In this document: piece after piece, positions 1-64,000 of the stretch | Layout: each line of letters starts with the position of its first letter | How positions within the stretch are numbered: position 1 is the first letter of the stretch | Origin: Isurus oxyrinchus | Lineage: Eukaryota | Direction of reading: 5' to 3' | Assembly (NCBI GenBank): GCA_026770705.1 | Contig: JANJGN010000002.1 | Coordinates: forward strand, 208,940,001 to 209,004,000 | Length of the DNA stretch: 64,000 nucleotides | The notes under the pieces: model-generated | Told to the model about the DNA's origin: nothing | Database searches by the model: none | What the model saw: the letters and a program-made list of their open reading frames with translations, nothing else | Made by a program: the position numbers and the translations under genes

Positions 1-329
1 TCAGCCCTTAAGGAGCTGCATAAGGGCCTCACTCTGCCAGCAATGATATTCAACCAGTCAGCATGACGCCAGTCACGTACATTAAATGCCACCCATAAAG
101 TTGCAAAATATATTCTTGTTACCATTCTTTCTTAGGAATGGATCGTTATTTTCCATTCTTGGTACAGATTTGCAGCAATGAACAAAATCCAGTTAAGAGG
201 CAACTTAGCATCGCAAAGGTCATAAAATATCTGCTGTAGTCAAAGACTTTTTAATTATGCTAATGCACACTTATACTATAATTCTTCACCATAATGACAG
301 AAACAATAGCAGTAACATAATAGGAAATA

Positions 330-760
330 GCATTAAAATCTGCTCATTCATGCTCAGTTTGTGTTTCTCATTGACCGATCAACTTCAAACCCCGTTATTC
401 TTAGTTCAAAATGGACAAATTAGATAAATTGCAGAAGTGAGATGAGAATAGCTGCCCATGACATCTACTCAGCATACATCAACATGTGGCTCTGAGAGCC
501 TTAGCAAAATTGAGCATCCTGAGTGTTCTGGATCAATTACTCCACTCGTTGGGATCATACCGAGTACAATGGAAGATCGGAAGGGTTGTTCCACGTCGTT
601 CATCTCACTCTATGGAAATCTCTGCAAGAATCCCTCAGGGTAGGCTTCTCGGCCCAACCATCTTCAATTGCTTCAACAATGGCCTTCAGAAGTAGGGATG
701 TTTGCTGCTGGTTGCACAGTGTTCAGTGCCTTTTCCAATTCCTGAAATAATGATGCGCTC
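330..760 (+). mobile_element. Degenerate non-LTR retrotransposon (CR1/L2-group LINE) reverse transcriptase fragment, type A copy; one copy in each of the 40 units; boundaries approximate
   Basis: Colinear decayed RT motifs across frameshifts and stops: NLLIHAQF(V/L)F (cf. LL.D.QFGFR), RSEMRIAAHDIYSAY(I/V)NMW (cf. V.LDI..AFDRVW), ALAKL...LGSY, ISARIPQGRLLGPTIFNCF(I/N)NGL (cf. GVPQGSVLGP.LF..FINDL), EVGMFAAGCTVFS (cf. FADD catalytic motif, both Asp lost). Confidence 0.88.
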
Positions 761-1090
761 CCTAAACAACATTTCAAAATTTGTAACAAACTTTCAAGTA
801 TATGTATATTTATAATGTATGACAAAAGCAGGAAACCTGTCCTAAGCAGATCTCACAAATTGAACTCGATCAAAACACATAGTTGGTTCCATTGACTGCA
901 ACTTTCAAAGTTCTCCTTCCTCTGGTGACACCAAAGACAACTGGTGATGCAGAATTCACGTCAGGTGGAAGCTTTGGAGAGAGAAACCAATTCTTGTACT
1001 GGTACTGATCTGAAACAAATATTTGACTCTTCACCCAACGGAATTTCCTCAACCTCTGAGTCTTTACAAGATTTTCTGTTTTAATTTCAG

Positions 1091-1192
1091 ATAACGCAAC
1101 AAAGGATTCTTCACATTTTGGTCTAGAAAACATTACAGGAAATGAAACATCAAGAGCAGAAAACCGTCCTTCAACATTTCCACCATCAACAG
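1091..1192 (+). CDS. Type A repeat exon (14 copies): (D)NATKDSSHFGLENITGNETSRAENRPSTFPPST
   Basis: ttttctgttttaatttcag|ATAACGCAAC...CCATCAACAG|gtgtgtaa; 102 nt; sequons NAT, NIT, NET. Confidence 0.7.
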
Positions 1193-4100
1193 GTGTGTAA
1201 AATGGAACTCCAGCTATCACATTTCAAAACATGGATGTGAGTTCAAAATTCACGTCTATTACTGGTCTTGGTCATTACAAGAGCAAACACGACAGCATTG
1301 CCTGAATGTTCAGAATCGAGCACAGAAATGGAACCATTAATAATTCCAGAATTCCTTCAACCTATGTAACATTAGTATCTATGGCAACTGTTATAGACTG
1401 TGTCAATCTGATTGGTGCAGTTTAAAAGGTATTTACAAGACCAAATGTGGTCTACAGCGCAGAACTTAATGTCCACCACAGATGTCAATCCAGACACTGG
1501 GTTTGGGGCCATGTAATTTGATGGCAGTGTGCGGAGTGGAGATCAAGCTGCGAGTCAGAAGGATAAGGGGCATGCCTTCCTGCCAGGAATCCACATTCAG
1601 CCCTTAAGGAGCTGCATAAGGGCCTCACTCTGCCAGCAATGATATTCAACCAGTCAGCATGACGCCAGTCACGTACATTAAATGCCACCCATAAAGTTGC
1701 AAAATATATTCTTGTTACCATTCTTTCTTAGGAATGGATCGTTATTTTCCATTCTTGGCACAGATTTGCAGCAATGAACAAAATCCAGATAAGAGGCAAC
1801 TTAGCATCGCAAAGGTCATAAAATATCTGCTGTAGTCAAAGACTTTTTAATTATTCTAAAGCACACTTATACTATAATTCTTCACCATAATGACAGAAAC
1901 AATAGCAGTAACATAATAGGAAATATCATTAAAACCTGCTTATTCATGGTCAGTTTGTGTTTCTCATTGTCCGATCAACTTCAAACCCCATTCATCTTAG
2001 TTCAAAATAGACAAATTAGATAAACTCCAGAAGTGAGATGAGAATGGCTGCCCATGACATCTACTCAGCATACGTCAACATGTGGCTCTGAGAGCCTTAG
2101 CAAATTTGAGCATCCTGAGCGTTCTGGATCAATTACTCCAATCGTTGGGATCATACCGAGCACAATGGAGGATCGGAGGGGTTGTTCCACGTCGCTCTAT
2201 GGAAATCTCTGCAAGAATCCCTCAGGGTAGGCTTCTCGGCCCAATCATCTTCAATTGCTTCATCAATGGCCTACTGAAGGAGGGATGTTTGCTGCTGGTT
2301 GCACAGTGTTCAGTACCTTTTCCAAACCCTGAGAAAATGATGCACTTCCTAAACAACATTTCAAAATTCGTAACAAACTTTCAAATATATGTAAATTTCA
2401 AATATACAATAAAAGTAGGATTCCTGTCCTAAGCAGATCTCACAAGTTCAACTTGATCAAAACACATATTTGATTTCATTTACTGCAACTATCAAAATTG
2501 TCCTTCCTCTACTGACACCAAAGATAACTGTTGATGCAGAATCCAAGTCAGGTGGAAGTTTTGGAGAGAGAAACCAATTGTTCTACTGATAACGATCTGA
2601 AACTAATATTTTACTCTTCACTCTACGGAATCTGCTTCAACCTTTGAGACTTTACAAGATTTTCTGTTTTAATTACAGATTACACCACAAAGGAATCTTC
2701 ATATTTTGGTCTGGAAAACATTACAGGAAATGAAACATCAAGAGCGGAAAACCCTCCTTCAACATTTCCACCATCAACAGGTATGTAAAATTGAACTCCA
2801 GTAATCACATGTCAAACTATGGATGTGAGTTCAAAATTCAGGGACATCCCATCTTTTACTGGTCTTGGTCATTACAAGAGCAAACACAACAGTATTTCCT
2901 GAATGTTCAGAATCGAGCACAGAAACGGAACCATTAATAAATGCCAGAATTCCTTCAACCCATGTAACATTAGTATCTATGGCAACTGTTCTGAACAGTG
3001 TCAATCTGATTGATGCAGTTTAAGAGGTACTAACAAGACCAAATACAGTGCAGAACTTAATGTCCACCACAGATGCCAATCCAGGGACTGGGTTTGGGGC
3101 CATGTAATTTGATGGGAGTGTGCGCATTGGCAATCAAGCTGCGAGTCAGAAAGATAAAGGGCAGCCTTCCTGCCAGGAATCCACATTCGGCGCGTAAGGA
3201 GCTGCATAAGGGCCTCACTCTGCCACCAATGTTATTCAACCAGTCGGCATGACACCAGTCACATATATTAAATGCCGCCCATAAATTACAAAATATGTTC
3301 TTGTTACTATTCTATCTTAGGAATGGATCGTTATTTTCCTTTCTTGGTACATGTTTGCTACAATGAACAACATCCAGATAAGAGGCGGAGATCATATAAT
3401 TTCTGCTGCAGTCAAAGACCTTTTAATTATGCTAATGCACACTTACACTATAATTCTTCACCATAATGACAGAAATACGAGCACTAACATAATGGGAAAT
3501 AGCACTAAAAACCTGCTCATTCATGCTCAGTTTTTGTTTCTCGTTGATCGGTCAACTTCAAGCACTGTTAGTCTTAGTTCAAAATGGACAAATTAGATAA
3601 ATTGCAGAAGTGAGATGAGAATAGCTGCCCATGACATCTACTCAGCATACGTCAACATGTGGCTCTGAGAGCCTTAGCAAAATTGAGCATCCTGAGCGTT
3701 CTGGATCAATTACTCCACTCGTTGGGATCATACCGAGCACAATGGAAGATCGGAGGGGTTGTTCCATATCACTCATCTCACTCTATGGAAATCTCTGCAA
3801 GAATCCCTCAGGATAGTCTCCTCGACCCAACCATCTTCAATTGCTTCATCAATGGCCTACTGAAGTAGGGATGTTTGCTGCTGGTTGCACAGTGTTCAGC
3901 GCCTTTTCCAATTACTGAGACAATAATGCACTTCCAAAACAACATTTCAAAATTCCTAACAGACTTTCAAACATATGTATATTTAAGATATACAAAAAAA
4001 GCAGGATTCCTGTCCTAAGCATATCTCACAAATTCAACTGGATCAAAACACATATTTGATTCCATTTACTGCAACTATCAAAATTGTCCTTCCTCTAGTG

Positions 4101-7100
4101 ACACCAAAGTTGATGAAGAATCCACTTCACGTGGAAGCTTCGGACAGAGAAACCAATTGTTGTACTGATATCAAGTTGAAACAAATATTTGGCTCTTCAC
4201 TCTACGGAATCTGCCTCAACCTCTGAGTCTTTACAAGATTTTCTGTTTTAATTTCAGATTACAATACAAAGGATTCTTCACATTTTGAACTGGAAAACAT
4301 TACAGGAAATGAAACATCAAGAGCAGAAAACCCTCCTTCAACATTTCCACCATCAACAGGTATGTAAAATGGAACTCCAGCTATCACATGTCAAAATATG
4401 GTGTGAGTCCAAAATTCAGGGACATCCCGTCTTTTACTGGTCTTGGTCATTACAAGAGCAAACACGACAGCATTTCCTGAATGTTCAGAATCGAGCACAG
4501 AAACGGAACCATTAATAAATGCCAGAATTCCTTCAACCCATGTAACATTAGTATCTATGGCAACTGTTATGGACTGTGTCAATCTGATTGATGCAGTTTA
4601 GGATGTATTAACAAGGCCAAATGTGGTCTACAGCGCAGAACTTAATGTCCACCACAGATGCCAATCCAGAGACTGGGTTTGGGGCAATGTAATTTGATGG
4701 GAGTGTGCGCATTGGCAATCAAGCTGCGAGTCCAAAGGATAAAGGACAGCCTTCCTGCCAGGAATCCACATTCAGCCCTTAAGAAGCTGCTTAAGGGCCG
4801 CACTCTGCCACCAATGATATTCAACCAGTTGGCATGACACCAGTCACGTACATTAAATGCCACGCATGATGTTGCAAAAGATTTTCTTGTTACTATTCTT
4901 TCTTAGGAATGGATCGTTATTTTCCTTTCTTGGTACAGATTTGCTACAATGAACAAAATCCAGATAAGGGGCAACTTAGCATCGCAAAGATCATATAATT
5001 GCTGCTGTAGTCAAAGACTTTTTAATTATGCTAATGCACACTTATAATATAATTCTTCACCATAATGACAGAAACAAGAGCAGTAACATATTGGGAAATA
5101 GCACTAAAAACCTGCTCATTCATGCTCAGTTTGTGTTTCTCATTGACTGATCAACTTCAAACCCCGTTATTCTTAGTTCAAAATGGACAAATTAGATAAA
5201 TTGCAGAAGTGAGATGAGAATAGCTGCCCATGACATCTACTCAGCATACGTCAACATGTGGCTCTCAGAGCCTTAGCAAAATTGAGCATCCTGAGCGTTC
5301 TGGTTCAATTACTCCACTCGTTGGGATCATACCGAGCACAATGGAAGATCGGAAGGGTTGTTCCACGTCGTTCATCTCACTCTATGGAAATCTCTGCAAG
5401 AATCCCTCAGGGTAGGCTTCTCGGCCCAACCATCTTCAACTGCTTCATCCATGGCCTACTGAAGGAGGGATGTTTGCTGCTGGTTGCACAGTGTTCAGTA
5501 CCTATTCCAAATCCTGAGAAAATGATGCACTTCCTAAACAACATTTCAAAATTCGTAACAAACTTTCAAATATATGTAAATTTCAAATATACAATAAAAG
5601 CAGGATTCCTGTCCTAAGCAGATCTCACAAATTCAACTGGATCCAAACACATATTTGATTTCATTTACTGCAACTATCAAAATTGTCCTTCCTCTAGTGA
5701 CACCAAAGATAAATGTTGCTGCAGCATCCAAGTCAAATGGAAGTTTTGGGCAGAGAAACCAATTGTTCTACTGATAGCGATCTGAAACTAATATTTTACT
5801 CTTCACTCTACAGAATCTGCCTCAACCTTGGAGTCTTTACAAGATTTTCTGCTTTTATTTCAGATTACACCACAAAGGAATCTTCACATTTTGGTCTGGA
5901 AAACATTACAGGAAATGAAACATCAAGAGCAGAAAAAGCACCTTCAACATTTCCACCATCAACAGGTATGTAAAATTGAACTCCAGTTATCACATGTCCA
6001 AATATGGATGTGAGTTCAAAATTCAGGGACATCCCGTCTTTTATTAGTTCTGGTCATTACAAGAGCAAACACGACAGCATTTCCTGAATGTTCAGAATCG
6101 AGCACAGAAATGGAACCATTAATAAATGCCAGAATTCCTACAACCCATGTAACGTTAGTATCAATGGCAACTGTTATGGACTGTGTCAATCTGACTGATG
6201 CAGTTTAAGAGGTACTAACAAGACCAAATGTGATCTCCAGCACAGAACTTAATGTCCACCACAATGCCAATCCAGTGACTGGGTTTTGGGCCACGTAATT
6301 TGATGGGAGTGTGCGAAGTGGAGATCAAGCTGCATGTCAGAAGGATAAAGGGCAGCCTTCCTGCCAGGAATCCACATTCGGCTCTTAAGGAGCTGCATGA
6401 CAGCCTCACGCTGCCAACAATGATATTCAATCATTCAGCATGATATCAGTCTCGTACATTAAATGCCACCCATAAAGTTGCGAAATATGTTCTTGTTGCT
6501 ATTCTTTCTTAGGAATGGATCGTTATTTTCTTCTCTTGGTACAGATTTGCAGCAATGAACAAAATCCAGATAAGAGGCAACTTAGCATCGCAAAGATCAT
6601 ATAATTTCTGCTGTAGTCAAAGACTTTTTAATTATGCTAATACACCATTATACTATAATTCTTCACCATAATGACAGAAATAAGAGCAGTAATATATTGT
6701 GAAATAGCACTAAAAACCTGTTCAATCATGCTCAGTTTGTGTTTCTCATTGACCAATCAACTTCAAACCCCATTGGTCTTAGTTCAAAATGGACAAATTA
6801 GATAAATTGCAGAAGTGAGATGAGAATAGCTGCCCATGACATCAACTCAGCATACGTCAAAATGTGCCTCTCAGAGTCTTAGCAAAATTGAGCATCCTGA
6901 GCGTTCTGGATCAATTATTCCACTCGTTGGGATCATACCGAGCACAATGGATGATCAGAGGGGTTGTTCCATGTCGCTCATCTCACTCTATGGAAATCTC
7001 TGCAAGAATCCCTCAGGGTAGGATCCTCGGCCCAACCATCTTCAATTGCTTCATCAATGGCCTACAGAAGTAGGGATGTTTGCTGCTGGTTGCACAGTGT

Positions 7101-10100
7101 TCAGTACCTTTTCCAATTCCTGAAATAATGATGCACTTCCAAAACAACATTTCAAAATTCATAACAATCTTTCAAATATATGTATATTTATAATGTACAA
7201 CAAAAGCACGATACCTGTCCTGAGCATATCTCACAAATTCAACTGGATCAAAAGACATATTTGATTCCATTTACTGCAACTTTCAAAGTACTCCTTCTTC
7301 TAGTGACACCAAAGACAACTGGTGATGCAGAATTCACGTCAGGTGGAAGCTTCGGAGAGAGAAACCAATTCTTGTACTGGTACTGATCTGAAACAAATAT
7401 TTTGCACTTCACTCTATGGAATCTTCCTCAACATCTGAGTCTTGACAAGATTTTCTGTTTTAATTTCAGATAACACAACAAAGGATTCTTCACAGTTTGA
7501 TCTGGAAAACAATACAGGAAATGAAACATCAAGAGCAGAAAACCCTCCTTCAACATTTCCACCATCAACAGGTATGTAAAATTGAACTCCAGCTATTACA
7601 TGTCAAAATATGGATGTGAGTTCAAAATTCAGGGACTTTCCCGTCTTTTACTGGTTCTGGTCATTACAAGAGCAAACACGACCACATTTCCTGAATGTTG
7701 CTGAATGAGCACAGAAACGGAACCATTAATAAATGCCAGAATTCCTTCAACCCATTAACGTTAGTATCTATGGCAACTGTTATGGACTGTGTCAATCTGA
7801 CTGATGCAGTTTAAGAGGTACAAACAAGACCAAATGTGATCTCCAGCACAGAACTTAATATCCACCACAATGCCAATCCAGTGACTGGGTTTGGGGCCAT
7901 GTAATTTGATGGGAGTGTGCAAAGTGGAGATCAAGCTGCGAGTCAGAAGGATAAAGGGCAGCCTTCCTGCCAGGAATCCACATTTGGCTCTTAAGGAGCT
8001 GCATGACAGCCTCACGCTGCCAACAATGATATTCAATCATTCAGCATGATATCAGTCTCGTACATTAAATGCCGCCCATAAAGTTGCGAAATATGTTCTT
8101 GTTGCTATTCTTTCTTAGGAATGGATCGTTATTTTCCATTCTTGGCACAGATTTGCAGCAATGAACAAAATCCAGTTAAGAGGCAACTTAGCATCGCAAA
8201 GGTCATAAAATATCTGCTGTAGTCAAAGACTTTTTAATTATGCTAATGCACACTTATACTATAATTCTTCACCATAATGACAGAAACAATAGCAGTAACA
8301 TAATAGGAAATAGCATTAAAATCTGCTCATTCATGCTCAGTTTGTGTTTCTCATTGACCGATCAACTTCAAACCCCGTTATTCTTAGTTCAAAATGGACA
8401 AATTAGATAAATTGCAGAAGTGAGATGAGAATAGCTGCCCATGACATCTACTCAGCATACATCAACATGTGGCTCTGAGAGCCTTAGCAAAATTGAGCAT
8501 CCTGAGTGTTCTGGATCAATTACTCCACTCGTTGGGATCATACCGAGTACAATGGAAGATCGGAAGGGTTGTTCCACGTCGTTCATCTCACTCTATGGAA
8601 ATCTCTGCAAGAATCCCTCAGGGTAGGCTTCTCGGCCCAACCATCTTCAATTGCTTCAACAATGGCCTTCAGAAGTAGGGATGTTTGCTGCTGGTTGCAC
8701 AGTGTTCAGTGCCTTTTCCAATTCCTGAAATAATGATGCGCTCCCTAAACAACATTTCAAAATTTGTAACAAACTTTCAAGTATATGTATATTTATAATG
8801 TATGACAAAAGCAGGAAACCTGTCCTAAGCAGATCTCACAAATTGAACTCGATCAAAACACATAGTTGGTTCCATTGACTGCAACTTTCAAAGTTCTCCT
8901 TCCTCTGGTGACACCAAAGACAACTGGTGATGCAGAATTCACGTCAGGTGGAAGCTTTGGAGAGAGAAACCAATTCTTGTACTGGTACTGATCTGAAACA
9001 AATATTTGACTCTTCACCCAACGGAATTTCCTCAACCTCTGAGTCTTTACAAGATTTTCTGTTTTAATTTCAGATAACGCAACAAAGGATTCTTCACATT
9101 TTGGTCTAGAAAACATTACAGGAAATGAAACATCAAGAGCAGAAAACCGTCCTTCAACATTTCCACCATCAACAGGTGTGTAAAATGGAACTCCAGCTAT
9201 CACATTTCAAAACATGGATGTGAGTTCAAAATTCACGTCTATTACTGGTCTTGGTCATTACAAGAGCAAACACGACAGCATTGCCTGAATGTTCAGAATC
9301 GAGCACAGAAATGGAACCATTAATAATTCCAGAATTCCTTCAACCTATGTAACATTAGTATCTATGGCAACTGTTATAGACTGTGTCAATCTGATTGGTG
9401 CAGTTTAAAAGGTATTTACAAGACCAAATGTGGTCTACAGCGCAGAACTTAATGTCCACCACAGATGTCAATCCAGACACTGGGTTTGGGGCCATGTAAT
9501 TTGATGGCAGTGTGCGGAGTGGAGATCAAGCTGCGAGTCAGAAGGATAAGGGGCATGCCTTCCTGCCAGGAATCCACATTCAGCCCTTAAGGAGCTGCAT
9601 AAGGGCCTCACTCTGCCAGCAATGATATTCAACCAGTCAGCATGACGCCAGTCACGTACATTAAATGCCACCCATAAAGTTGCAAAATATATTCTTGTTA
9701 CCATTCTTTCTTAGGAATGGATCGTTATTTTCCATTCTTGGCACAGATTTGCAGCAATGAACAAAATCCAGATAAGAGGCAACTTAGCATCGCAAAGGTC
9801 ATAAAATATCTGCTGTAGTCAAAGACTTTTTAATTATTCTAAAGCACACTTATACTATAATTCTTCACCATAATGACAGAAACAATAGCAGTAACATAAT
9901 AGGAAATATCATTAAAACCTGCTTATTCATGGTCAGTTTGTGTTTCTCATTGTCCGATCAACTTCAAACCCCATTCATCTTAGTTCAAAATAGACAAATT
10001 AGATAAACTCCAGAAGTGAGATGAGAATGGCTGCCCATGACATCTACTCAGCATACGTCAACATGTGGCTCTGAGAGCCTTAGCAAATTTGAGCATCCTG

Positions 10101-52100: not shown

Positions 52101-55100
52101 ACCCAACGGAATTTCCTCAACCTCTGAGTCTTTACAAGATTTTCTGTTTTAATTTCAGATAACGCAACAAAGGATTCTTCACATTTTGGTCTAGAAAACA
52201 TTACAGGAAATGAAACATCAAGAGCAGAAAACCGTCCTTCAACATTTCCACCATCAACAGGTGTGTAAAATGGAACTCCAGCTATCACATTTCAAAACAT
52301 GGATGTGAGTTCAAAATTCACGTCTATTACTGGTCTTGGTCATTACAAGAGCAAACACGACAGCATTGCCTGAATGTTCAGAATCGAGCACAGAAATGGA
52401 ACCATTAATAATTCCAGAATTCCTTCAACCTATGTAACATTAGTATCTATGGCAACTGTTATAGACTGTGTCAATCTGATTGGTGCAGTTTAAAAGGTAT
52501 TTACAAGACCAAATGTGGTCTACAGCGCAGAACTTAATGTCCACCACAGATGTCAATCCAGACACTGGGTTTGGGGCCATGTAATTTGATGGCAGTGTGC
52601 GGAGTGGAGATCAAGCTGCGAGTCAGAAGGATAAGGGGCATGCCTTCCTGCCAGGAATCCACATTCAGCCCTTAAGGAGCTGCATAAGGGCCTCACTCTG
52701 CCAGCAATGATATTCAACCAGTCAGCATGACGCCAGTCACGTACATTAAATGCCACCCATAAAGTTGCAAAATATATTCTTGTTACCATTCTTTCTTAGG
52801 AATGGATCGTTATTTTCCATTCTTGGCACAGATTTGCAGCAATGAACAAAATCCAGATAAGAGGCAACTTAGCATCGCAAAGGTCATAAAATATCTGCTG
52901 TAGTCAAAGACTTTTTAATTATTCTAAAGCACACTTATACTATAATTCTTCACCATAATGACAGAAACAATAGCAGTAACATAATAGGAAATATCATTAA
53001 AACCTGCTTATTCATGGTCAGTTTGTGTTTCTCATTGTCCGATCAACTTCAAACCCCATTCATCTTAGTTCAAAATAGACAAATTAGATAAACTCCAGAA
53101 GTGAGATGAGAATGGCTGCCCATGACATCTACTCAGCATACGTCAACATGTGGCTCTGAGAGCCTTAGCAAATTTGAGCATCCTGAGCGTTCTGGATCAA
53201 TTACTCCAATCGTTGGGATCATACCGAGCACAATGGAGGATCGGAGGGGTTGTTCCACGTCGCTCTATGGAAATCTCTGCAAGAATCCCTCAGGGTAGGC
53301 TTCTCGGCCCAATCATCTTCAATTGCTTCATCAATGGCCTACTGAAGGAGGGATGTTTGCTGCTGGTTGCACAGTGTTCAGTACCTTTTCCAAACCCTGA
53401 GAAAATGATGCACTTCCTAAACAACATTTCAAAATTCGTAACAAACTTTCAAATATATGTAAATTTCAAATATACAATAAAAGTAGGATTCCTGTCCTAA
53501 GCAGATCTCACAAGTTCAACTTGATCAAAACACATATTTGATTTCATTTACTGCAACTATCAAAATTGTCCTTCCTCTACTGACACCAAAGATAACTGTT
53601 GATGCAGAATCCAAGTCAGGTGGAAGTTTTGGAGAGAGAAACCAATTGTTCTACTGATAACGATCTGAAACTAATATTTTACTCTTCACTCTACGGAATC
53701 TGCTTCAACCTTTGAGACTTTACAAGATTTTCTGTTTTAATTACAGATTACACCACAAAGGAATCTTCATATTTTGGTCTGGAAAACATTACAGGAAATG
53801 AAACATCAAGAGCGGAAAACCCTCCTTCAACATTTCCACCATCAACAGGTATGTAAAATTGAACTCCAGTAATCACATGTCAAACTATGGATGTGAGTTC
53901 AAAATTCAGGGACATCCCATCTTTTACTGGTCTTGGTCATTACAAGAGCAAACACAACAGTATTTCCTGAATGTTCAGAATCGAGCACAGAAACGGAACC
54001 ATTAATAAATGCCAGAATTCCTTCAACCCATGTAACATTAGTATCTATGGCAACTGTTCTGAACAGTGTCAATCTGATTGATGCAGTTTAAGAGGTACTA
54101 ACAAGACCAAATACAGTGCAGAACTTAATGTCCACCACAGATGCCAATCCAGGGACTGGGTTTGGGGCCATGTAATTTGATGGGAGTGTGCGCATTGGCA
54201 ATCAAGCTGCGAGTCAGAAAGATAAAGGGCAGCCTTCCTGCCAGGAATCCACATTCGGCGCGTAAGGAGCTGCATAAGGGCCTCACTCTGCCACCAATGT
54301 TATTCAACCAGTCGGCATGACACCAGTCACATATATTAAATGCCGCCCATAAATTACAAAATATGTTCTTGTTACTATTCTATCTTAGGAATGGATCGTT
54401 ATTTTCCTTTCTTGGTACATGTTTGCTACAATGAACAACATCCAGATAAGAGGCGGAGATCATATAATTTCTGCTGCAGTCAAAGACCTTTTAATTATGC
54501 TAATGCACACTTACACTATAATTCTTCACCATAATGACAGAAATACGAGCACTAACATAATGGGAAATAGCACTAAAAACCTGCTCATTCATGCTCAGTT
54601 TTTGTTTCTCGTTGATCGGTCAACTTCAAGCACTGTTAGTCTTAGTTCAAAATGGACAAATTAGATAAATTGCAGAAGTGAGATGAGAATAGCTGCCCAT
54701 GACATCTACTCAGCATACGTCAACATGTGGCTCTGAGAGCCTTAGCAAAATTGAGCATCCTGAGCGTTCTGGATCAATTACTCCACTCGTTGGGATCATA
54801 CCGAGCACAATGGAAGATCGGAGGGGTTGTTCCATATCACTCATCTCACTCTATGGAAATCTCTGCAAGAATCCCTCAGGATAGTCTCCTCGACCCAACC
54901 ATCTTCAATTGCTTCATCAATGGCCTACTGAAGTAGGGATGTTTGCTGCTGGTTGCACAGTGTTCAGCGCCTTTTCCAATTACTGAGACAATAATGCACT
55001 TCCAAAACAACATTTCAAAATTCCTAACAGACTTTCAAACATATGTATATTTAAGATATACAAAAAAAGCAGGATTCCTGTCCTAAGCATATCTCACAAA

Positions 55101-58100
55101 TTCAACTGGATCAAAACACATATTTGATTCCATTTACTGCAACTATCAAAATTGTCCTTCCTCTAGTGACACCAAAGTTGATGAAGAATCCACTTCACGT
55201 GGAAGCTTCGGACAGAGAAACCAATTGTTGTACTGATATCAAGTTGAAACAAATATTTGGCTCTTCACTCTACGGAATCTGCCTCAACCTCTGAGTCTTT
55301 ACAAGATTTTCTGTTTTAATTTCAGATTACAATACAAAGGATTCTTCACATTTTGAACTGGAAAACATTACAGGAAATGAAACATCAAGAGCAGAAAACC
55401 CTCCTTCAACATTTCCACCATCAACAGGTATGTAAAATGGAACTCCAGCTATCACATGTCAAAATATGGTGTGAGTCCAAAATTCAGGGACATCCCGTCT
55501 TTTACTGGTCTTGGTCATTACAAGAGCAAACACGACAGCATTTCCTGAATGTTCAGAATCGAGCACAGAAACGGAACCATTAATAAATGCCAGAATTCCT
55601 TCAACCCATGTAACATTAGTATCTATGGCAACTGTTATGGACTGTGTCAATCTGATTGATGCAGTTTAGGATGTATTAACAAGGCCAAATGTGGTCTACA
55701 GCGCAGAACTTAATGTCCACCACAGATGCCAATCCAGAGACTGGGTTTGGGGCAATGTAATTTGATGGGAGTGTGCGCATTGGCAATCAAGCTGCGAGTC
55801 CAAAGGATAAAGGACAGCCTTCCTGCCAGGAATCCACATTCAGCCCTTAAGAAGCTGCTTAAGGGCCGCACTCTGCCACCAATGATATTCAACCAGTTGG
55901 CATGACACCAGTCACGTACATTAAATGCCACGCATGATGTTGCAAAAGATTTTCTTGTTACTATTCTTTCTTAGGAATGGATCGTTATTTTCCTTTCTTG
56001 GTACAGATTTGCTACAATGAACAAAATCCAGATAAGGGGCAACTTAGCATCGCAAAGATCATATAATTGCTGCTGTAGTCAAAGACTTTTTAATTATGCT
56101 AATGCACACTTATAATATAATTCTTCACCATAATGACAGAAACAAGAGCAGTAACATATTGGGAAATAGCACTAAAAACCTGCTCATTCATGCTCAGTTT
56201 GTGTTTCTCATTGACTGATCAACTTCAAACCCCGTTATTCTTAGTTCAAAATGGACAAATTAGATAAATTGCAGAAGTGAGATGAGAATAGCTGCCCATG
56301 ACATCTACTCAGCATACGTCAACATGTGGCTCTCAGAGCCTTAGCAAAATTGAGCATCCTGAGCGTTCTGGTTCAATTACTCCACTCGTTGGGATCATAC
56401 CGAGCACAATGGAAGATCGGAAGGGTTGTTCCACGTCGTTCATCTCACTCTATGGAAATCTCTGCAAGAATCCCTCAGGGTAGGCTTCTCGGCCCAACCA
56501 TCTTCAACTGCTTCATCCATGGCCTACTGAAGGAGGGATGTTTGCTGCTGGTTGCACAGTGTTCAGTACCTATTCCAAATCCTGAGAAAATGATGCACTT
56601 CCTAAACAACATTTCAAAATTCGTAACAAACTTTCAAATATATGTAAATTTCAAATATACAATAAAAGCAGGATTCCTGTCCTAAGCAGATCTCACAAAT
56701 TCAACTGGATCCAAACACATATTTGATTTCATTTACTGCAACTATCAAAATTGTCCTTCCTCTAGTGACACCAAAGATAAATGTTGCTGCAGCATCCAAG
56801 TCAAATGGAAGTTTTGGGCAGAGAAACCAATTGTTCTACTGATAGCGATCTGAAACTAATATTTTACTCTTCACTCTACAGAATCTGCCTCAACCTTGGA
56901 GTCTTTACAAGATTTTCTGCTTTTATTTCAGATTACACCACAAAGGAATCTTCACATTTTGGTCTGGAAAACATTACAGGAAATGAAACATCAAGAGCAG
57001 AAAAAGCACCTTCAACATTTCCACCATCAACAGGTATGTAAAATTGAACTCCAGTTATCACATGTCCAAATATGGATGCGAGTTCAAAATTCAGGGACAT
57101 CCCGTCTTTTATTAGTTCTGGTCATTACAAGAGCAAACACGACAGCATTTCCTGAATGTTCAGAATCGAGCACAGAAATGGAACCATTAATAAATGCCAG
57201 AATTCCTACAACCCATGTAACGTTAGTATCAATGGCAACTGTTATGGACTGTGTCAATCTGACTGATGCAGTTTAAGAGGTACTAACAAGACCAAATGTG
57301 ATCTCCAGCACAGAACTTAATGTCCACCACAATGCCAATCCAGTGACTGGGTTTTGGGCCACGTAATTTGATGGGAGTGTGCGAAGTGGAGATCAAGCTG
57401 CATGTCAGAAGGATAAAGGGCAGCCTTCCTGCCAGGAATCCACATTCGGCTCTTAAGGAGCTGCATGACAGCCTCACGCTGCCAACAATGATATTCAATC
57501 ATTCAGCATGATATCAGTCTCGTACATTAAATGCCACCCATAAAGTTGCGAAATATGTTCTTGTTGCTATTCTTTCTTAGGAATGGATCGTTATTTTCTT
57601 CTCTTGGTACAGATTTGCAGCAATGAACAAAATCCAGATAAGAGGCAACTTAGCATCGCAAAGATCATATAATTTCTGCTGTAGTCAAAGACTTTTTAAT
57701 TATGCTAATACACCATTATACTATAATTCTTCACCATAATGACAGAAATAAGAGCAGTAATATATTGTGAAATAGCACTAAAAACCTGTTCAATCATGCT
57801 CAGTTTGTGTTTCTCATTGACCAATCAACTTCAAACCCCATTGGTCTTAGTTCAAAATGGACAAATTAGATAAATTGCAGAAGTGAGATGAGAATAGCTG
57901 CCCATGACATCAACTCAGCATACGTCAAAATGTGCCTCTCAGAGTCTTAGCAAAATTGAGCATCCTGAGCGTTCTGGATCAATTATTCCACTCGTTGGGA
58001 TCATACCGAGCACAATGGATGATCAGAGGGGTTGTTCCATGTCGCTCATCTCACTCTATGGAAATCTCTGCAAGAATCCCTCAGGGTAGGATCCTCGGCC

Positions 58101-61100
58101 CAACCATCTTCAATTGCTTCATCAATGGCCTACAGAAGTAGGGATGTTTGCTGCTGGTTGCACAGTGTTCAGTACCTTTTCCAATTCCTGAAATAATGAT
58201 GCACTTCCAAAACAACATTTCAAAATTCATAACAATCTTTCAAATATATGTATATTTATAATGTACAACAAAAGCACGATACCTGTCCTGAGCATATCTC
58301 ACAAATTCAACTGGATCAAAAGACATATTTGATTCCATTTACTGCAACTTTCAAAGTACTCCTTCTTCTAGTGACACCAAAGACAACTGGTGATGCAGAA
58401 TTCACGTCAGGTGGAAGCTTCGGAGAGAGAAACCAATTCTTGTACTGGTACTGATCTGAAACAAATATTTTGCACTTCACTCTATGGAATCTTCCTCAAC
58501 ATCTGAGTCTTGACAAGATTTTCTGTTTTAATTTCAGATAACACAACAAAGGATTCTTCACAGTTTGATCTGGAAAACAATACAGGAAATGAAACATCAA
58601 GAGCAGAAAACCCTCCTTCAACATTTCCACCATCAACAGGTATGTAAAATTGAACTCCAGCTATTACATGTCAAAATATGGATGTGAGTTCAAAATTCAG
58701 GGACTTTCCCGTCTTTTACTGGTTCTGGTCATTACAAGAGCAAACACGACCACATTTCCTGAATGTTGCTGAATGAGCACAGAAACGGAACCATTAATAA
58801 ATGCCAGAATTCCTTCAACCCATTAACGTTAGTATCTATGGCAACTGTTATGGACTGTGTCAATCTGACTGATGCAGTTTAAGAGGTACAAACAAGACCA
58901 AATGTGATCTCCAGCACAGAACTTAATATCCACCACAATGCCAATCCAGTGACTGGGTTTGGGGCCATGTAATTTGATGGGAGTGTGCAAAGTGGAGATC
59001 AAGCTGCGAGTCAGAAGGATAAAGGGCAGCCTTCCTGCCAGGAATCCACATTTGGCTCTTAAGGAGCTGCATGACAGCCTCACGCTGCCAACAATGATAT
59101 TCAATCATTCAGCATGATATCAGTCTCGTACATTAAATGCCGCCCATAAAGTTGCGAAATATGTTCTTGTTGCTATTCTTTCTTAGGAATGGATCGTTAT
59201 TTTCCATTCTTGGCACAGATTTGCAGCAATGAACAAAATCCAGTTAAGAGGCAACTTAGCATCGCAAAGGTCATAAAATATCTGCTGTAGTCAAAGACTT
59301 TTTAATTATGCTAATGCACACTTATACTATAATTCTTCACCATAATGACAGAAACAATAGCAGTAACATAATAGGAAATAGCATTAAAATCTGCTCATTC
59401 ATGCTCAGTTTGTGTTTCTCATTGACCGATCAACTTCAAACCCCGTTATTCTTAGTTCAAAATGGACAAATTAGATAAATTGCAGAAGTGAGATGAGAAT
59501 AGCTGCCCATGACATCTACTCAGCATACATCAACATGTGGCTCTGAGAGCCTTAGCAAAATTGAGCATCCTGAGTGTTCTGGATCAATTACTCCACTCGT
59601 TGGGATCATACCGAGTACAATGGAAGATCGGAAGGGTTGTTCCACGTCGTTCATCTCACTCTATGGAAATCTCTGCAAGAATCCCTCAGGGTAGGCTTCT
59701 CGGCCCAACCATCTTCAATTGCTTCAACAATGGCCTTCAGAAGTAGGGATGTTTGCTGCTGGTTGCACAGTGTTCAGTGCCTTTTCCAATTCCTGAAATA
59801 ATGATGCGCTCCCTAAACAACATTTCAAAATTTGTAACAAACTTTCAAGTATATGTATATTTATAATGTATGACAAAAGCAGGAAACCTGTCCTAAGCAG
59901 ATCTCACAAATTGAACTCGATCAAAACACATAGTTGGTTCCATTGACTGCAACTTTCAAAGTTCTCCTTCCTCTGGTGACACCAAAGACAACTGGTGATG
60001 CAGAATTCACGTCAGGTGGAAGCTTTGGAGAGAGAAACCAATTCTTGTACTGGTACTGATCTGAAACAAATATTTGACTCTTCACCCAACGGAATTTCCT
60101 CAACCTCTGAGTCTTTACAAGATTTTCTGTTTTAATTTCAGATAACGCAACAAAGGATTCTTCACATTTTGGTCTAGAAAACATTACAGGAAATGAAACA
60201 TCAAGAGCAGAAAACCGTCCTTCAACATTTCCACCATCAACAGGTGTGTAAAATGGAACTCCAGCTATCACATTTCAAAACATGGATGTGAGTTCAAAAT
60301 TCACGTCTATTACTGGTCTTGGTCATTACAAGAGCAAACACGACAGCATTGCCTGAATGTTCAGAATCGAGCACAGAAATGGAACCATTAATAATTCCAG
60401 AATTCCTTCAACCTATGTAACATTAGTATCTATGGCAACTGTTATAGACTGTGTCAATCTGATTGGTGCAGTTTAAAAGGTATTTACAAGACCAAATGTG
60501 GTCTACAGCGCAGAACTTAATGTCCACCACAGATGTCAATCCAGACACTGGGTTTGGGGCCATGTAATTTGATGGCAGTGTGCGGAGTGGAGATCAAGCT
60601 GCGAGTCAGAAGGATAAGGGGCATGCCTTCCTGCCAGGAATCCACATTCAGCCCTTAAGGAGCTGCATAAGGGCCTCACTCTGCCAGCAATGATATTCAA
60701 CCAGTCAGCATGACGCCAGTCACGTACATTAAATGCCACCCATAAAGTTGCAAAATATATTCTTGTTACCATTCTTTCTTAGGAATGGATCGTTATTTTC
60801 CATTCTTGGTACAGATTTGCAGCAATGAACAAAATCCAGTTAAGAGGCAACTTAGCATCGCAAAGGTCATAAAATATCTGCTGTAGTCAAAGACTTTTTA
60901 ATTATGCTAATGCACACTTATACTATAATTCTTCACCATAATGACAGAAACAATAGCAGTAACATAATAGGAAATAGCATTAAAATCTGCTCATTCATGC
61001 TCAGTTTGTGTTTCTCATTGACCGATCAACTTCAAACCCCGTTATTCTTAGTTCAAAATGGACAAATTAGATAAATTGCAGAAGTGAGATGAGAATAGCT

Positions 61101-63427
61101 GCCCATGACATCTACTCAGCATACATCAACATGTGGCTCTGAGAGCCTTAGCAAAATTGAGCATCCTGAGTGTTCTGGATCAATTACTCCACTCGTTGGG
61201 ATCATACCGAGTACAATGGAAGATCGGAAGGGTTGTTCCACGTCGTTCATCTCACTCTATGGAAATCTCTGCAAGAATCCCTCAGGGTAGGCTTCTCGGC
61301 CCAACCATCTTCAATTGCTTCAACAATGGCCTTCAGAAGTAGGGATGTTTGCTGCTGGTTGCACAGTGTTCAGTGCCTTTTCCAATTCCTGAAATAATGA
61401 TGCGCTCCCTAAACAACATTTCAAAATTTGTAACAAACTTTCAAGTATATGTATATTTATAATGTATGACAAAAGCAGGAAACCTGTCCTAAGCAGATCT
61501 CACAAATTGAACTCGATCAAAACACATATTTGGTTCCATTGACTGCAACTTTCAAAGTTCTCCTTCCTCTGGTGACACCAAAGACAACTGGTGATGCAGA
61601 ATTCACGTCAGGTGGAAGCTTTGGAGAGAGAAACCAATTCTTGTACTGGTACTGATCTGAAACAAATATTTGACTCTTCACCCAACGGAATTTCCTCAAC
61701 CTCTGAGTCTTTACAAGATTTTCTGTTTTAATTTCAGATAACGCAACAAAGGATTCTTCACATTTTGGTCTAGAAAACATTACAGGAAATGAAACATCAA
61801 GAGCAGAAAACCGTCCTTCAACATTTCCACCATCAACAGGTGTGTAAAATGGAACTCCAGCTATCACATTTCAAAACATGGATGTGAGTTCAAAATTCAC
61901 GTCTATTACTGGTCTTGGTCATTACAAGAGCAAACACGACAGCATTGCCTGAATGTTCAGAATCGAGCACAGAAATGGAACCATTAATAATTCCAGAATT
62001 CCTTCAACCTATGTAACATTAGTATCTATGGCAACTGTTATAGACTGTGTCAATCTGATTGGTGCAGTTTAAAAGGTATTTACAAGACCAAATGTGGTCT
62101 ACAGCGCAGAACTTAATGTCCACCACAGATGTCAATCCAGACACTGGGTTTGGGGCCATGTAATTTGATGGCAGTGTGCGGAGTGGAGATCAAGCTGCGA
62201 GTCAGAAGGATAAGGGGCATGCCTTCCTGCCAGGAATCCACATTCAGCCCTTAAGGAGCTGCATAAGGGCCTCACTCTGCCAGCAATGATATTCAACCAG
62301 TCAGCATGACGCCAGTCACGTACATTAAATGCCACCCATAAAGTTGCAAAATATATTCTTGTTACCATTCTTTCTTAGGAATGGATCGTTATTTTCCATT
62401 CTTGGCACAGATTTGCAGCAATGAACAAAATCCAGATAAGAGGCAACTTAGCATCGCAAAGGTCATAAAATATCTGCTGTAGTCAAAGACTTTTTAATTA
62501 TTCTAAAGCACACTTATACTATAATTCTTCACCATAATGACAGAAACAATAGCAGTAACATAATAGGAAATATCATTAAAACCTGCTTATTCATGGTCAG
62601 TTTGTGTTTCTCATTGTCCGATCAACTTCAAACCCCATTCATCTTAGTTCAAAATAGACAAATTAGATAAACTCCAGAAGTGAGATGAGAATGGCTGCCC
62701 ATGACATCTACTCAGCATACGTCAACATGTGGCTCTGAGAGCCTTAGCAAATTTGAGCATCCTGAGCGTTCTGGATCAATTACTCCAATCGTTGGGATCA
62801 TACCGAGCACAATGGAGGATCGGAGGGGTTGTTCCACGTCGCTCTATGGAAATCTCTGCAAGAATCCCTCAGGGTAGGCTTCTCGGCCCAATCATCTTCA
62901 ATTGCTTCATCAATGGCCTACTGAAGGAGGGATGTTTGCTGCTGGTTGCACAGTGTTCAGTACCTTTTCCAAACCCTGAGAAAATGATGCACTTCCTAAA
63001 CAACATTTCAAAATTCGTAACAAACTTTCAAATATATGTAAATTTCAAATATACAATAAAAGTAGGATTCCTGTCCTAAGCAGATCTCACAAGTTCAACT
63101 TGATCAAAACACATATTTGATTTCATTTACTGCAACTATCAAAATTGTCCTTCCTCTACTGACACCAAAGATAACTGTTGATGCAGAATCCAAGTCAGGT
63201 GGAAGTTTTGGAGAGAGAAACCAATTGTTCTACTGATAACGATCTGAAACTAATATTTTACTCTTCACTCTACGGAATCTGCTTCAACCTTTGAGACTTT
63301 ACAAGATTTTCTGTTTTAATTACAGATTACACCACAAAGGAATCTTCATATTTTGGTCTGGAAAACATTACAGGAAATGAAACATCAAGAGCGGAAAACC
63401 CTCCTTCAACATTTCCACCATCAACAG
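1091..63427 (+). CDS. Putative partial multi-exon CDS: 40 x 102-nt phase-1 exons encoding a 1360-aa mucin-like, N-glycosylation-rich 34-aa tandem repeat region (no start or stop in window)
   Basis: Exon starts (each 102 nt): 1091A 2679B 4258C 5864D 7470E 9074A 10662B 12241C 13847D 15453E 17057A 18653A 20241B 21820C 23426D 25032E 26636A 28232A 29820B 31399C 33005D 34611E 36215A 37811A 39399B 40984A 42580A 44168B 45747C 47353D 48959E 50563A 52159A 53747B 55326C 56932D 58538E 60142A 61738A 63326B. The first five were read directly; the rest were placed by unit offset and spot-checked. Exons have TTTTCTG(T/C)TTT(A/T)ATT(T/A)CAG acceptors and CAACAG|GT(A/G)TGT donors. Each junction G|AT gives Asp and the frame stays open. 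Introns are 1477-1504 nt. No transcript evidence is available. Confidence 0.72.
1926..2347 (+). mobile_element. LINE RT remnant, type B copy (9-nt internal deletion near 2194)
   Basis: Track ORF 2082..2432 contains ISARIPQGRLLGPIIFNCFINGL; same motif order as the type A copy. Confidence 0.85.
2679..2780 (+). CDS. Type B repeat exon (8 copies): (D)YTTKESSYFGLENITGNETSRAENPPSTFPPST
   Basis: ttttctgttttaattacag|ATTACACCAC...CCATCAACAG|gtatgtaa; 102 nt; sequons NIT, NET. Confidence 0.72.
3503..3933 (+). mobile_element. LINE RT remnant, type C copy
   Basis: NLLIHAQFLFL (ORF 3351..3596) and ISARIPQDSLLDPTIFNCFINGL (ORF 3659..3868). Confidence 0.85.
4258..4359 (+). CDS. Type C repeat exon (6 copies): (D)YNTKDSSHFELENITGNETSRAENPPSTFPPST
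   Basis: ttttctgttttaatttcag|ATTACAATAC...CCATCAACAG|gtatgtaa; 102 nt; sequons NIT, NET. Confidence 0.72.
4775..4798. other. Short inverted repeat GCCCTTAAG-aagctg-CTTAAGGGC (perfect 9-bp arms in type C, degenerate in other types)
   Basis: Read directly; the arms are exact reverse complements. The type A equivalent is gcccttaaggagctgcataagggc at 4-27. Confidence 0.8.
5102..5532 (+). mobile_element. LINE RT remnant, type D copy
   Basis: ISARIPQGRLLGPTIFNCFIHGL (ORF 5258..5617). Confidence 0.85.
5864..5965 (+). CDS. Type D repeat exon (6 copies): (D)YTTKESSHFGLENITGNETSRAEKAPSTFPPST
   Basis: ttttctgcttttatttcag|ATTACACCAC...CCATCAACAG|gtatgtaa; 102 nt. The peptide is visible at the end of track ORF 5713..5973. 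Confidence 0.72.
6708..7138 (+). mobile_element. LINE RT remnant, type E copy
   Basis: ISARIPQGRILGPTIFNCFINGL (ORF 6864..7073). Confidence 0.85.
7470..7571 (+). CDS. Type E repeat exon (6 copies): (D)NTTKDSSQFDLENNTGNETSRAENPPSTFPPST
   Basis: ttttctgttttaatttcag|ATAACACAAC...CCATCAACAG|gtatgtaa; 102 nt; sequons NTT, NNT, NET. Confidence 0.72.
8441..16423. repeat. 5-mer HOR variant ABCDE (7983 bp, single A)
   Basis: E tail, then A at 8441, then B directly at 10037; ORF track offset of 7983. Confidence 0.96.
16424..35581. repeat. Two 6-mer HOR copies AABCDE (9579 bp each; 16424-26002 and 26003-35581)
   Basis: The ORF set recurs at +9579. Confidence 0.97.
35582..40350. repeat. Truncated HOR AAB (4769 bp; C, D and E missing)
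   Basis: B at 38774 is followed at +1577 by an A-type unit carrying C-type upstream sequence. Confidence 0.96.
40351..59508. repeat. Two 6-mer HOR copies AABCDE (40351-49929 and 49930-59508)
   Basis: The ORF set recurs at +9579. Confidence 0.97.
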
Positions 63428-64000
63428 GTATGTAAAATTGAACTCCAGTAATCACATGTCAAACTATGGATGTGAGTTCAAAATTCAGGGACATCCCATC
63501 TTTTACTGGTCTTGGTCATTACAAGAGCAAACACAACAGTATTTCCTGAATGTTCAGAATCGAGCACAGAAACGGAACCATTAATAAATGCCAGAATTCC
63601 TTCAACCCATGTAACATTAGTATCTATGGCAACTGTTCTGAACAGTGTCAATCTGATTGATGCAGTTTAAGAGGTACTAACAAGACCAAATACAGTGCAG
63701 AACTTAATGTCCACCACAGATGCCAATCCAGGGACTGGGTTTGGGGCCATGTAATTTGATGGGAGTGTGCGCATTGGCAATCAAGCTGCGAGTCAGAAAG
63801 ATAAAGGGCAGCCTTCCTGCCAGGAATCCACATTCGGCGCGTAAGGAGCTGCATAAGGGCCTCACTCTGCCACCAATGTTATTCAACCAGTCGGCATGAC
63901 ACCAGTCACATATATTAAATGCCGCCCATAAATTACAAAATATGTTCTTGTTACTATTCTATCTTAGGAATGGATCGTTATTTTCCTTTCTTGGTACATG
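59509..64000. repeat. Partial HOR AAB..., cut by the window end
   Basis: A at 59509, A at 61105, B at 62701. Confidence 0.95.

Follow-up and report, generated by a model that had tools for sequence, protein, structure and literature searches.

The window, a 64,000-nucleotide stretch of Isurus oxyrinchus DNA, lies in the middle of a shark MUC4-like gene, which the original prediction had left unnamed. It constitutes the central 64 kb (1..64000, + strand) of a tandem array of approximately 120 kb, built from exon-intron units of about 1.6 kb. The sequence makes it highly probable that the gene encodes a MUC4-like membrane mucin, with the array providing its mucin-domain exons, likely multiplied by unequal crossing-over.

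Organization of the array

The dominant 21-mer periods in the window are 9,579, 1,596 and 7,983 bp. From base 458, 39 complete monomers of about 1.6 kb each fall into five classes, denoted A to E, in the order ABCDE ABCDE aABCDE aABCDE aAB aABCDE aABCDE aA, where 'a' is a variant of class A with 16 differences from it. Any two classes differ at 7.6-10.2% of their sites and by 3-9 indel events, while the window monomers show 10 variable columns and no indels within classes, matching the "about ten" single-base differences that had been noticed by eye. The canonical order is kept at 36 of 38 adjacencies (at most 19 in 100,000 shuffles), and the 9,579-bp six-unit copies are 1-7 bases apart, with some blocks identical. 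The array is therefore a higher-order repeat (HOR) in Willard's sense, with diverged monomers in fixed order and a divergence of 7.6-10.2% between monomers against 0.03% between HOR copies; the predicted two-tier architecture of five diverged monomers is borne out by this decomposition into five ordered classes and near-identical blocks.

All HORs are on the + strand. The first ABCDE (458..8440) belongs to a six-unit HOR that begins with an 'a' unit immediately before base 458, and is followed by the sole five-unit variant of 7,983 bp, ABCDE without 'a' (8441..16423). Two canonical six-unit HORs (aABCDE; 16424..35581) differ from each other by 2 substitutions. A three-unit variant of 4,769 bp (aAB; 35582..40350), whose B exon unit is chimeric (B/E), separates them from two further canonical copies (40351..59508) that differ by 7 substitutions, and the opening of another six-unit HOR (59509..64000) runs past the end of the window. 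Of the two block lengths originally described, the 9,579-bp HOR stands; the 7,983-bp length belongs to one shortened variant, counted once because the first ABCDE has its 'a' unit just outside the window, and the 4,769-bp variant had been overlooked.

The whole array comprises 74 units (G000:C2 ~208,908,200-209,028,100), extending about 32 kb to the left and 24 kb to the right of the window, where other HOR types are found; overall, three HOR layers follow in succession. An intronic stretch of every monomer (positions ~83-300; 540..760 in the window, unstranded) matches, with 70-80% identity, a dispersed repeat that many other contigs carry. Part of this intron (window 582-695), which we took to resemble a LINE reverse transcriptase, gave no Pfam match, and that assignment was dropped.

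The host gene and its repeat exons

All exons of the gene are on the + strand. A signal-peptide exon (C2:208,856,938) is followed by exon 2 and by five repeat exons that are older and diverged. The 74-unit array and two Ser/Thr-rich exons come next; thereafter come FN3, EGF, NIDO, AMOP-like, VWD with GDPH, EGF, SEA-like, EGF and transmembrane segments and the tail, the last exons reaching ~209,125,000. The signal-peptide exon, assigned by homology rather than by a predictor, matches the Chiloscyllium N-terminus with 65% identity and has a phase-1 donor. The flanking exons follow the order of their matches in the mucin-4-like proteins of Scyliorhinus and Chiloscyllium, with identities mostly of 70-95%. 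Pfam reports EGF, EGF_CA, VWD (E 1.9e-5, with the GDPH cleavage motif present in the sequence), NIDO (E 1.7e-5, in one exon; the orthologs have the full domain) and a weak AMOP (E 0.023, under the cut-off; the locus is not among the four AMOP matches of the genome), and the EGF domains are accompanied by a transmembrane segment. Pig MUC4 is also missed by the Pfam AMOP model, and the AMOP-like region of the Chiloscyllium ortholog aligns to it; between NIDO and the transmembrane segment, the same two proteins align with E values of 1e-108 and 2e-38. Vertebrate MUC4 and elasmobranch mucin-4-like proteins (such as XP_043558361.1 and XP_059507120.1) have in common with this gene the signal peptide, the repeat domain, NIDO, VWD with GDPH, EGF and the transmembrane segment, and possibly the AMOP-like region; the shark proteins differ from vertebrate MUC4 in their additional FN3 and many calcium-binding EGF domains. 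A CD45/receptor tyrosine phosphatase stalk was considered and rejected, as 150 of 218 candidates for PF00102 were scored and gave 141 matches, none of them near the locus, and the downstream exons are of MUC4 type. A second MUC4-like gene, a tandem paralog, is located directly upstream.

Each unit features one exon-like open segment of 102 nt, in phase 1 and bounded by AG/GT; in the window, all 40 are of this kind. The class A segment (1091..1192; phase 1-1, three N-glycan sequons) has 14 identical copies in the window and class B (2679..2780) has 8, with six each for classes C (4258..4359), D (5864..5965) and E (7470..7571), all on the + strand. Throughout the gene, 79 of 79 segments are 102 nt long, AG/GT-bounded and stop-free in a single frame, a count that omits one interrupted further copy at C2:208,884,846. 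Since the exons of all five classes also lack stops in a second forward frame, an open frame by itself is weak evidence for coding; minus-strand ORFs (up to 117 aa) are not conserved across the monomer classes. The earlier reading as a coding exon array is upheld, since the segments have splice signals, stay open and are homologous to mucin-4-like proteins annotated in sharks. All repeat exons are symmetric (phase 1-1), so that gain, loss or skipping of a unit preserves the frame.

The predicted repeat domain of 2,685 aa has 30.8% Ser+Thr, 10.7% Pro and 180 N-X-S/T sequons, and is thus a Pro/Thr/Ser-rich (PTS) tandem-repeat domain as in MUC4-type membrane mucins; about 31% Ser+Thr is modest for a mucin. 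The repeat segments most likely represent the mucin domain, with one exon per repeat. Searches of the repeat peptide against Pfam and of one HOR against Rfam gave no families and no matches, respectively. The proposed 204-aa AABCDE protein repeat stands as a prediction because 'a' and A share an identical exon, although the first 'A' is an A/E chimera and not a plain A.

An HMM of the repeat matches 4 of 48 proteins, all of them shark mucin-4-like, directly after the signal peptide where one is present. These orthologs share the same repeat of 34-35 aa, with 1-11 copies in the annotated mucin-4-like proteins of other sharks compared to 79 here. In Stegostoma there are 11 copies, 8 of them near-identical, and one isoform lacks exactly one repeat unit; in Chiloscyllium punctatum, a 99-aa block of three segments is duplicated. 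A single-exon search of representative proteins returned two matches: one is a fragment from Scyliorhinus torazame that contains three repeats, and the other a protein that looks unrelated.

In alpha-satellite arrays the monomers are diverged and the HOR copies nearly identical, variant HORs contain chimeric monomers, and the layers have older flanks; centromeric satellites form large arrays outside genes, typically on several chromosomes. Because its HOR is two-tiered, its expansions are layered and its monomeric flanks have diverged, the array could be taken for a centromeric or pericentromeric satellite merely resembling coding sequence. This is very unlikely: the array is only ~120 kb in length and intragenic, the exon-bearing part of the monomer has all 40 scored matches (of 86 candidates) at a single locus, and the unit is homologous to annotated protein exons in other sharks.

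Constraint, copy number and turnover

Alignment to the five old copies gives 2 gaps over 509 bases of exon (17.9 expected) and 63 over 1,791 bases of flank, with substitutions at 21% and 29%, respectively; these comparisons have one reference copy in common. Classes A-E vary at 16 of 102 exon columns and at 278 of 1,453 intron columns, so that the exon has no significant excess of conservation (p=0.43), and pN/pS among the class exons is 0.8-1.0, indicating no constraint at the amino-acid level. Selection appears to guard the frame and the splice sites, not the amino acids.

The similar exon and intron variability among classes A-E and the pN/pS near 1 speak for another reading, in which most of the 74 copies are skipped or the allele is dead, and the array has become a satellite of what was once an exon-intron unit, drifting in an intron or pseudogene. 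One old copy is already interrupted, and a 1-base frameshift is present in one of the NIDO exons downstream, at ~C2:209,063,988. However, all 79 counted exons are without stop, indel or splice-site loss while the introns gained many indels, and the remaining 3' exons align without internal stops. In addition, five 1-base differences from two relatives' contigs (in a list that does not include the frameshift site itself) flank the frameshift on both sides, all in homopolymer runs, which suggests a local consensus error in the assembly. A dead or skipped array is therefore quite unlikely. Two presumed-RNA runs of a relative covered the NIDO region on interspersed repeats alone, and have no bearing on expression.

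A somewhat greater, but still small, probability is given to the near-identical HOR copies being in part the product of assembly over-expansion or collapse, in which case the architecture would be real and the count of 74, taken from one assembly, wrong. Copies separated by just 1-7 bases per 9.6 kb, some blocks being identical, would fit such an artefact, as would the imperfect polishing suggested by the nearby homopolymer differences. Against it, there are no N gaps in 464 kb, the variants are mostly transitions with a single indel among the main-class units, one variant is common to several copies at different HOR positions, and duplicated reads would not yield three distinct HOR layers and chimeras. 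CpG transitions make up 6 of the 14 within-class variants listed, as expected from real mutation. Over-expansion affects the number of units and not their identity, and is compatible with a MUC4-like exon array.

The HOR copies differ by 0.03%, while the closest public DNA run differs by 0.43% in unique sequence nearby; the "very recent" expansion or homogenisation originally proposed is thus true in relative terms. At the rate of 7e-10 per generation given in PMC10587355, the HOR copies would date to ~2e5 generations and the monomer classes to an implausible 6e7, so that only relative ages are used.

The chimeric 'a' unit switches from A to E once and cleanly, at approximately 17700..17785 (+ strand; alignment columns 653-723 from the exon start). 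The B/E chimera also has one clean switch, near 40,400-40,450, and a C/D chimera has one switch and a single stray site. Such clean chimeras point to unequal crossing-over as the likely means by which the units multiply. Early single-unit duplications may have diverged into classes A-E, after which a five-unit block would have been amplified; an out-of-register crossover could then have created the A/E chimera and the six-unit block, with more unequal crossovers giving the 3-, 4- and 5-unit variants. Most likely, the HOR arose incidentally from recombination and not through selection for a 204-aa functional module.

Relation to known repeat genes and the predicted stalk

The layout is already known from a few other genes. 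In human MUC4 the VNTR lies within one exon, exon 2 (PMC10754145), in contrast with the shark gene, where each repeat has its own exon. Chicken Muc13, as described in PMC1552070, is a transmembrane mucin with EST support for a PTS domain of one repeat per exon, and its authors suggest that splicing controls length and that the design is ancestral; its 20-aa repeats number at least 12 and span an assembly gap, and it is of SEA type rather than MUC4 and, unlike the shark array, is described there without HORs. NBPF/Olduvai, originally cited as a partial analogue, is closer than that: according to PMC11675761, it has intragenic coding monomers of ~1.6 kb in 3-mer HORs, described in alpha-satellite terminology, with triplets derived from a recombination event. 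It differs in its order of 3 (4-6 in the shark), its spread over several genes and in not being a mucin. In the Argiope MaSp2 spidroins (PMC9779670), homogenised exon-intron pairs alternate between two intron types, of which those authors know no other example, and unequal crossing-over is proposed; the shark array has five classes, chimeras and three layers. The likeness to alpha-satellite (drawn partly from PMC11675761) extends to diverged monomers, near-identical HORs, chimeric variants and layers, but the shark monomer is 1.6 kb long and exon-bearing, with 8-10% monomer divergence and 120 kb at one intragenic locus.

The array offers a fully assembled case, free of gaps, in which a coding exon-intron unit turns over in the manner of a satellite and the junctions left by recombination can be read. 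As assemblies usually lack mucin domains, the 'one exon per repeat' ancestral design, proposed for chicken and fish mucins, becomes open to study at scale, and repeat annotation should take into account that an HOR array is not necessarily a centromere.

If all 79 exons are spliced in, an extended stalk of ~2,690 aa would result in a protein of about 4,500 aa; shark MUC4-like proteins would then be more than twice their annotated length and unusually rich in N-glycan sites. The predicted stalk could carry dense O-glycans and ~180 N-glycan sites, and serve as a cell-surface barrier. More tentatively, shark membrane mucins may build their stalks from exon-intron cassettes with a turnover like that of centromeric satellites, here with 79 exons, three HOR layers and a stalk of ~2,700 aa. 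In the newly expanded units, 2-3 N-glycan sequons each may have replaced an acidic Asp/Glu-Tyr motif that the old copies carry, possibly giving an N-glycan-dense, length-variable barrier that is tuned by unequal crossing-over and exon skipping, and that may have re-expanded independently in several shark lineages.

Organisation of the repeat array

A tandem array, whose principal periods are 1,596, 7,983 and 9,579 bp, fills the whole window, drawn from a genome of 4.98 Gb. Its 39 complete monomers run, from base 458, in the order ABCDE ABCDE aABCDE aABCDE aAB aABCDE aABCDE aA, where A to E denote five classes and a is a chimeric A variant. Within the window the classes lie 7.6–10.2% apart, with 3–9 indel events per class pair; inside classes, variation is confined to 10 columns, without any indel. 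The canonical order holds in 36 of 38 adjacencies (maximum 19 in 100,000 shuffles). The higher-order repeats (HORs) of five monomers are accurately described in the original prediction, apart from two points: the 7,983-bp form is present once only, and a 4,769-bp form had been overlooked. The intron of each unit contains a piece of about 220 bp of a dispersed repeat (window 540–760 in the first unit), which is present on many contigs and was copied along with the array. The CpG observed/expected ratio is 0.38 in the array (window 1–64000) and 0.26–0.27 in the flanks.

The array was followed through 200 kb on each side of the window (464 kb in total, with no N), and extends on contig JANJGN010000002.1 (C2) from ~208,908,200 to ~209,028,100, with 74 exon-bearing units in this one assembly. 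Its left part consists of irregular units and about two copies of a 7,945-bp five-unit repeat, with 0 differences across four units. The centre holds seven canonical six-unit HORs, which differ pairwise by 1–7 substitutions (mean 3.0, 0.03%), together with one five-unit and one three-unit variant, and the right part has two copies of a 6,377-bp four-unit repeat with 3 differences between them. Beyond it, to the left, lie five older copies (C2:208,870,220-208,908,058), set in sequence that shares ~70% identity with the monomer. Among them, at C2:208,884,846, is an interrupted and apparently dead copy, in which the acceptor is intact and similarity ends after ~50 nt.

The putative repeat exon and its host gene

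In every unit the + strand carries a single 102-nt exon-like segment, as seen for all 40 in the window (5 distinct sequences); it starts after a pyrimidine-rich AG acceptor, ends at a GTATGT or GTGTGT donor, and is in phase 1 at both ends. All 79 segments counted gene-wide fit this description, with no stop over 2,685 amino acids (interrupted copy excluded). A second forward frame of the exon is open too, which weighs against the coding reading. The predicted peptide contains 30.8% Ser+Thr, 10.7% Pro and 180 N-X-S/T sequons, 100 of them from the window, at 2–3 per exon in expanded copies as against 0–1 in the old ones. The old exons open with acidic, Tyr-containing motifs such as EDYSDFD, which resemble tyrosine-sulfation contexts; expanded copies have shed these motifs and acquired N-glycan sequons.

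Scanning for exons downstream of the array found EGF, VWD with GDPH, calcium-binding EGF and a transmembrane segment. A search with the VWD exon matched 11 proteins, the best being shark ‘mucin-4-like’ (87–93% identity), which points to a shark genome, and such proteins were mapped exon by exon to place the exons of the gene. A signal exon (208,856,938) and exon 2 (~208,866,810) precede the repeats, which are followed by Ser/Thr exons (209,031,860 and 209,035,246), then FN3, EGFs, NIDO, AMOP-like, VWD, EGFs, an exon which we presume to be SEA-like (no Pfam match there), EGF, the transmembrane exon (209,119,300) and the tail (~209,124,900). For one Chiloscyllium EGF exon no counterpart was found at the locus; it is missing from the S. 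torazame protein as well. The Chiloscyllium ortholog aligns with pig MUC4 from NIDO through the membrane segment. Against the coding reading, the frame of one NIDO exon is shifted by 1 base (~209,063,988). Near it, among the differences listed, contigs from two other runs are both one base shorter at five places, each in a homopolymer, surrounding a long poly-C tract; this suggests a local consensus error, and the frameshift is probably an assembly error. An intron in the 3' part holds a DDE_Tnp_4 (Harbinger-type) transposase fragment (1729–2097 of sequence segment L031).

Directly upstream, on the same strand, is a second, tandem MUC4-like gene (~208,745,000–208,816,000) with EGFs, NIDO, VWD with GDPH, a transmembrane segment and a Thr-rich stretch near 208,757,700–208,758,500; it is 35–65% identical to shark orthologs of the array gene.

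The prediction of a coding exon array is supported by gene structure and by the presence of the repeat in shark mucin-4-like proteins; most probably the array encodes, with one exon per repeat, the mucin domain of a MUC4-like shark gene. That it is instead a centromere is unlikely: it spans only 120 kb at a single, intragenic locus, and of the 86 candidates that the exon-bearing part of the monomer gave genome-wide, 40 were scored and all 40 fall inside this array, matches on other contigs coming from the intronic dispersed repeat.

Selection, homogenisation and relative age

Compared with the five old copies, the repeat exon shows 2 gaps in 509 aligned bases, where 17.9 would be expected from the flanks (63 in 1,791), and fewer substitutions (21% versus 29%, p=0.0003); these comparisons share one reference copy. 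Among classes A–E, exon and intron show no difference in conservation (p=0.43), and pN/pS of the exon is 0.81–1.02. Frame and splice sites appear to be guarded while the amino acids are not, which argues against the proposed 204-aa (AABCDE) super-repeat as a selected module.

When units are painted by class along alignment columns, the a unit is class A over the first ~650 columns and class E past ~720, with a single switch; in the last unit of the three-unit variant B gives way to E, and a C/D chimera lies within the right-hand four-unit repeat. Unequal crossing-over between misaligned units yields in-register chimeras of this sort, and would here have generated both the chimeras and the HOR variants, in an order of events that we infer. 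Several of the 14 within-class variants listed carry the letter of another class, which suggests that short conversion tracts acted among units; 6 of the 14 are CpG transitions. The single indel in main-class units, 11 bp, lies left of the window.

In unique nearby sequence, among the long contigs listed, the closest public DNA run differs at 35 of 8,046 bases (0.43%) and that of a relative at 154 of 8,160 (1.9%). As HOR copies are only 0.03% apart, they were homogenised after the split from the closest run, in agreement, in relative terms, with the very recent expansion or homogenisation originally proposed; if rates are similar, the monomer classes would predate both splits.

Known systems and the repeat in other sharks

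Each ingredient has a precedent. Human MUC4 has a VNTR in exon 2, then NIDO, AMOP, vWD, GDPH and EGF (PMC10754145), and the deepest MUC4-like gene known in 2007 was that of Xenopus (PMC4948705). Chicken Muc13 has one PTS repeat per exon, a design proposed as ancestral (PMC1552070), and chicken MUC2 distributes PTS repeats across exons 32–45 (PMC3549977). NBPF genes have coding monomers of ~1.6 kb arranged as 3-mer HORs (PMC11675761). In Argiope MaSp2, exon-intron pairs are homogenised with two alternating intron types, and the authors were aware of no further example (PMC9779670). Among the titles listed by a literature search, mostly outside subscription journals, none dealt with an exon-based HOR of a shark MUC4, and this combination, HOR order (4–6) and size (74–79 exons) were not found in print.

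An HMM of the repeat matched 4 of 48 fetched proteins: a Stegostoma protein with 11 copies, 8 of them near-identical, two C. plagiosum isoforms with 2 each, and an S. canicula protein with 1. In a second run all 9 proteins of a chosen set matched, including C. punctatum (4 copies, in a duplicated 99-aa three-segment block) and an S. torazame fragment (3 copies). A triplicated post-repeat segment was seen among the Stegostoma and Chiloscyllium punctatum proteins. The proteins compared are database gene models, and one Stegostoma isoform lacks exactly one repeat unit; such isoforms are usually based on RNA alignments. Because the unit that expanded in Stegostoma is another variant, 35 aa long, the repeat looks to have expanded independently in sharks.
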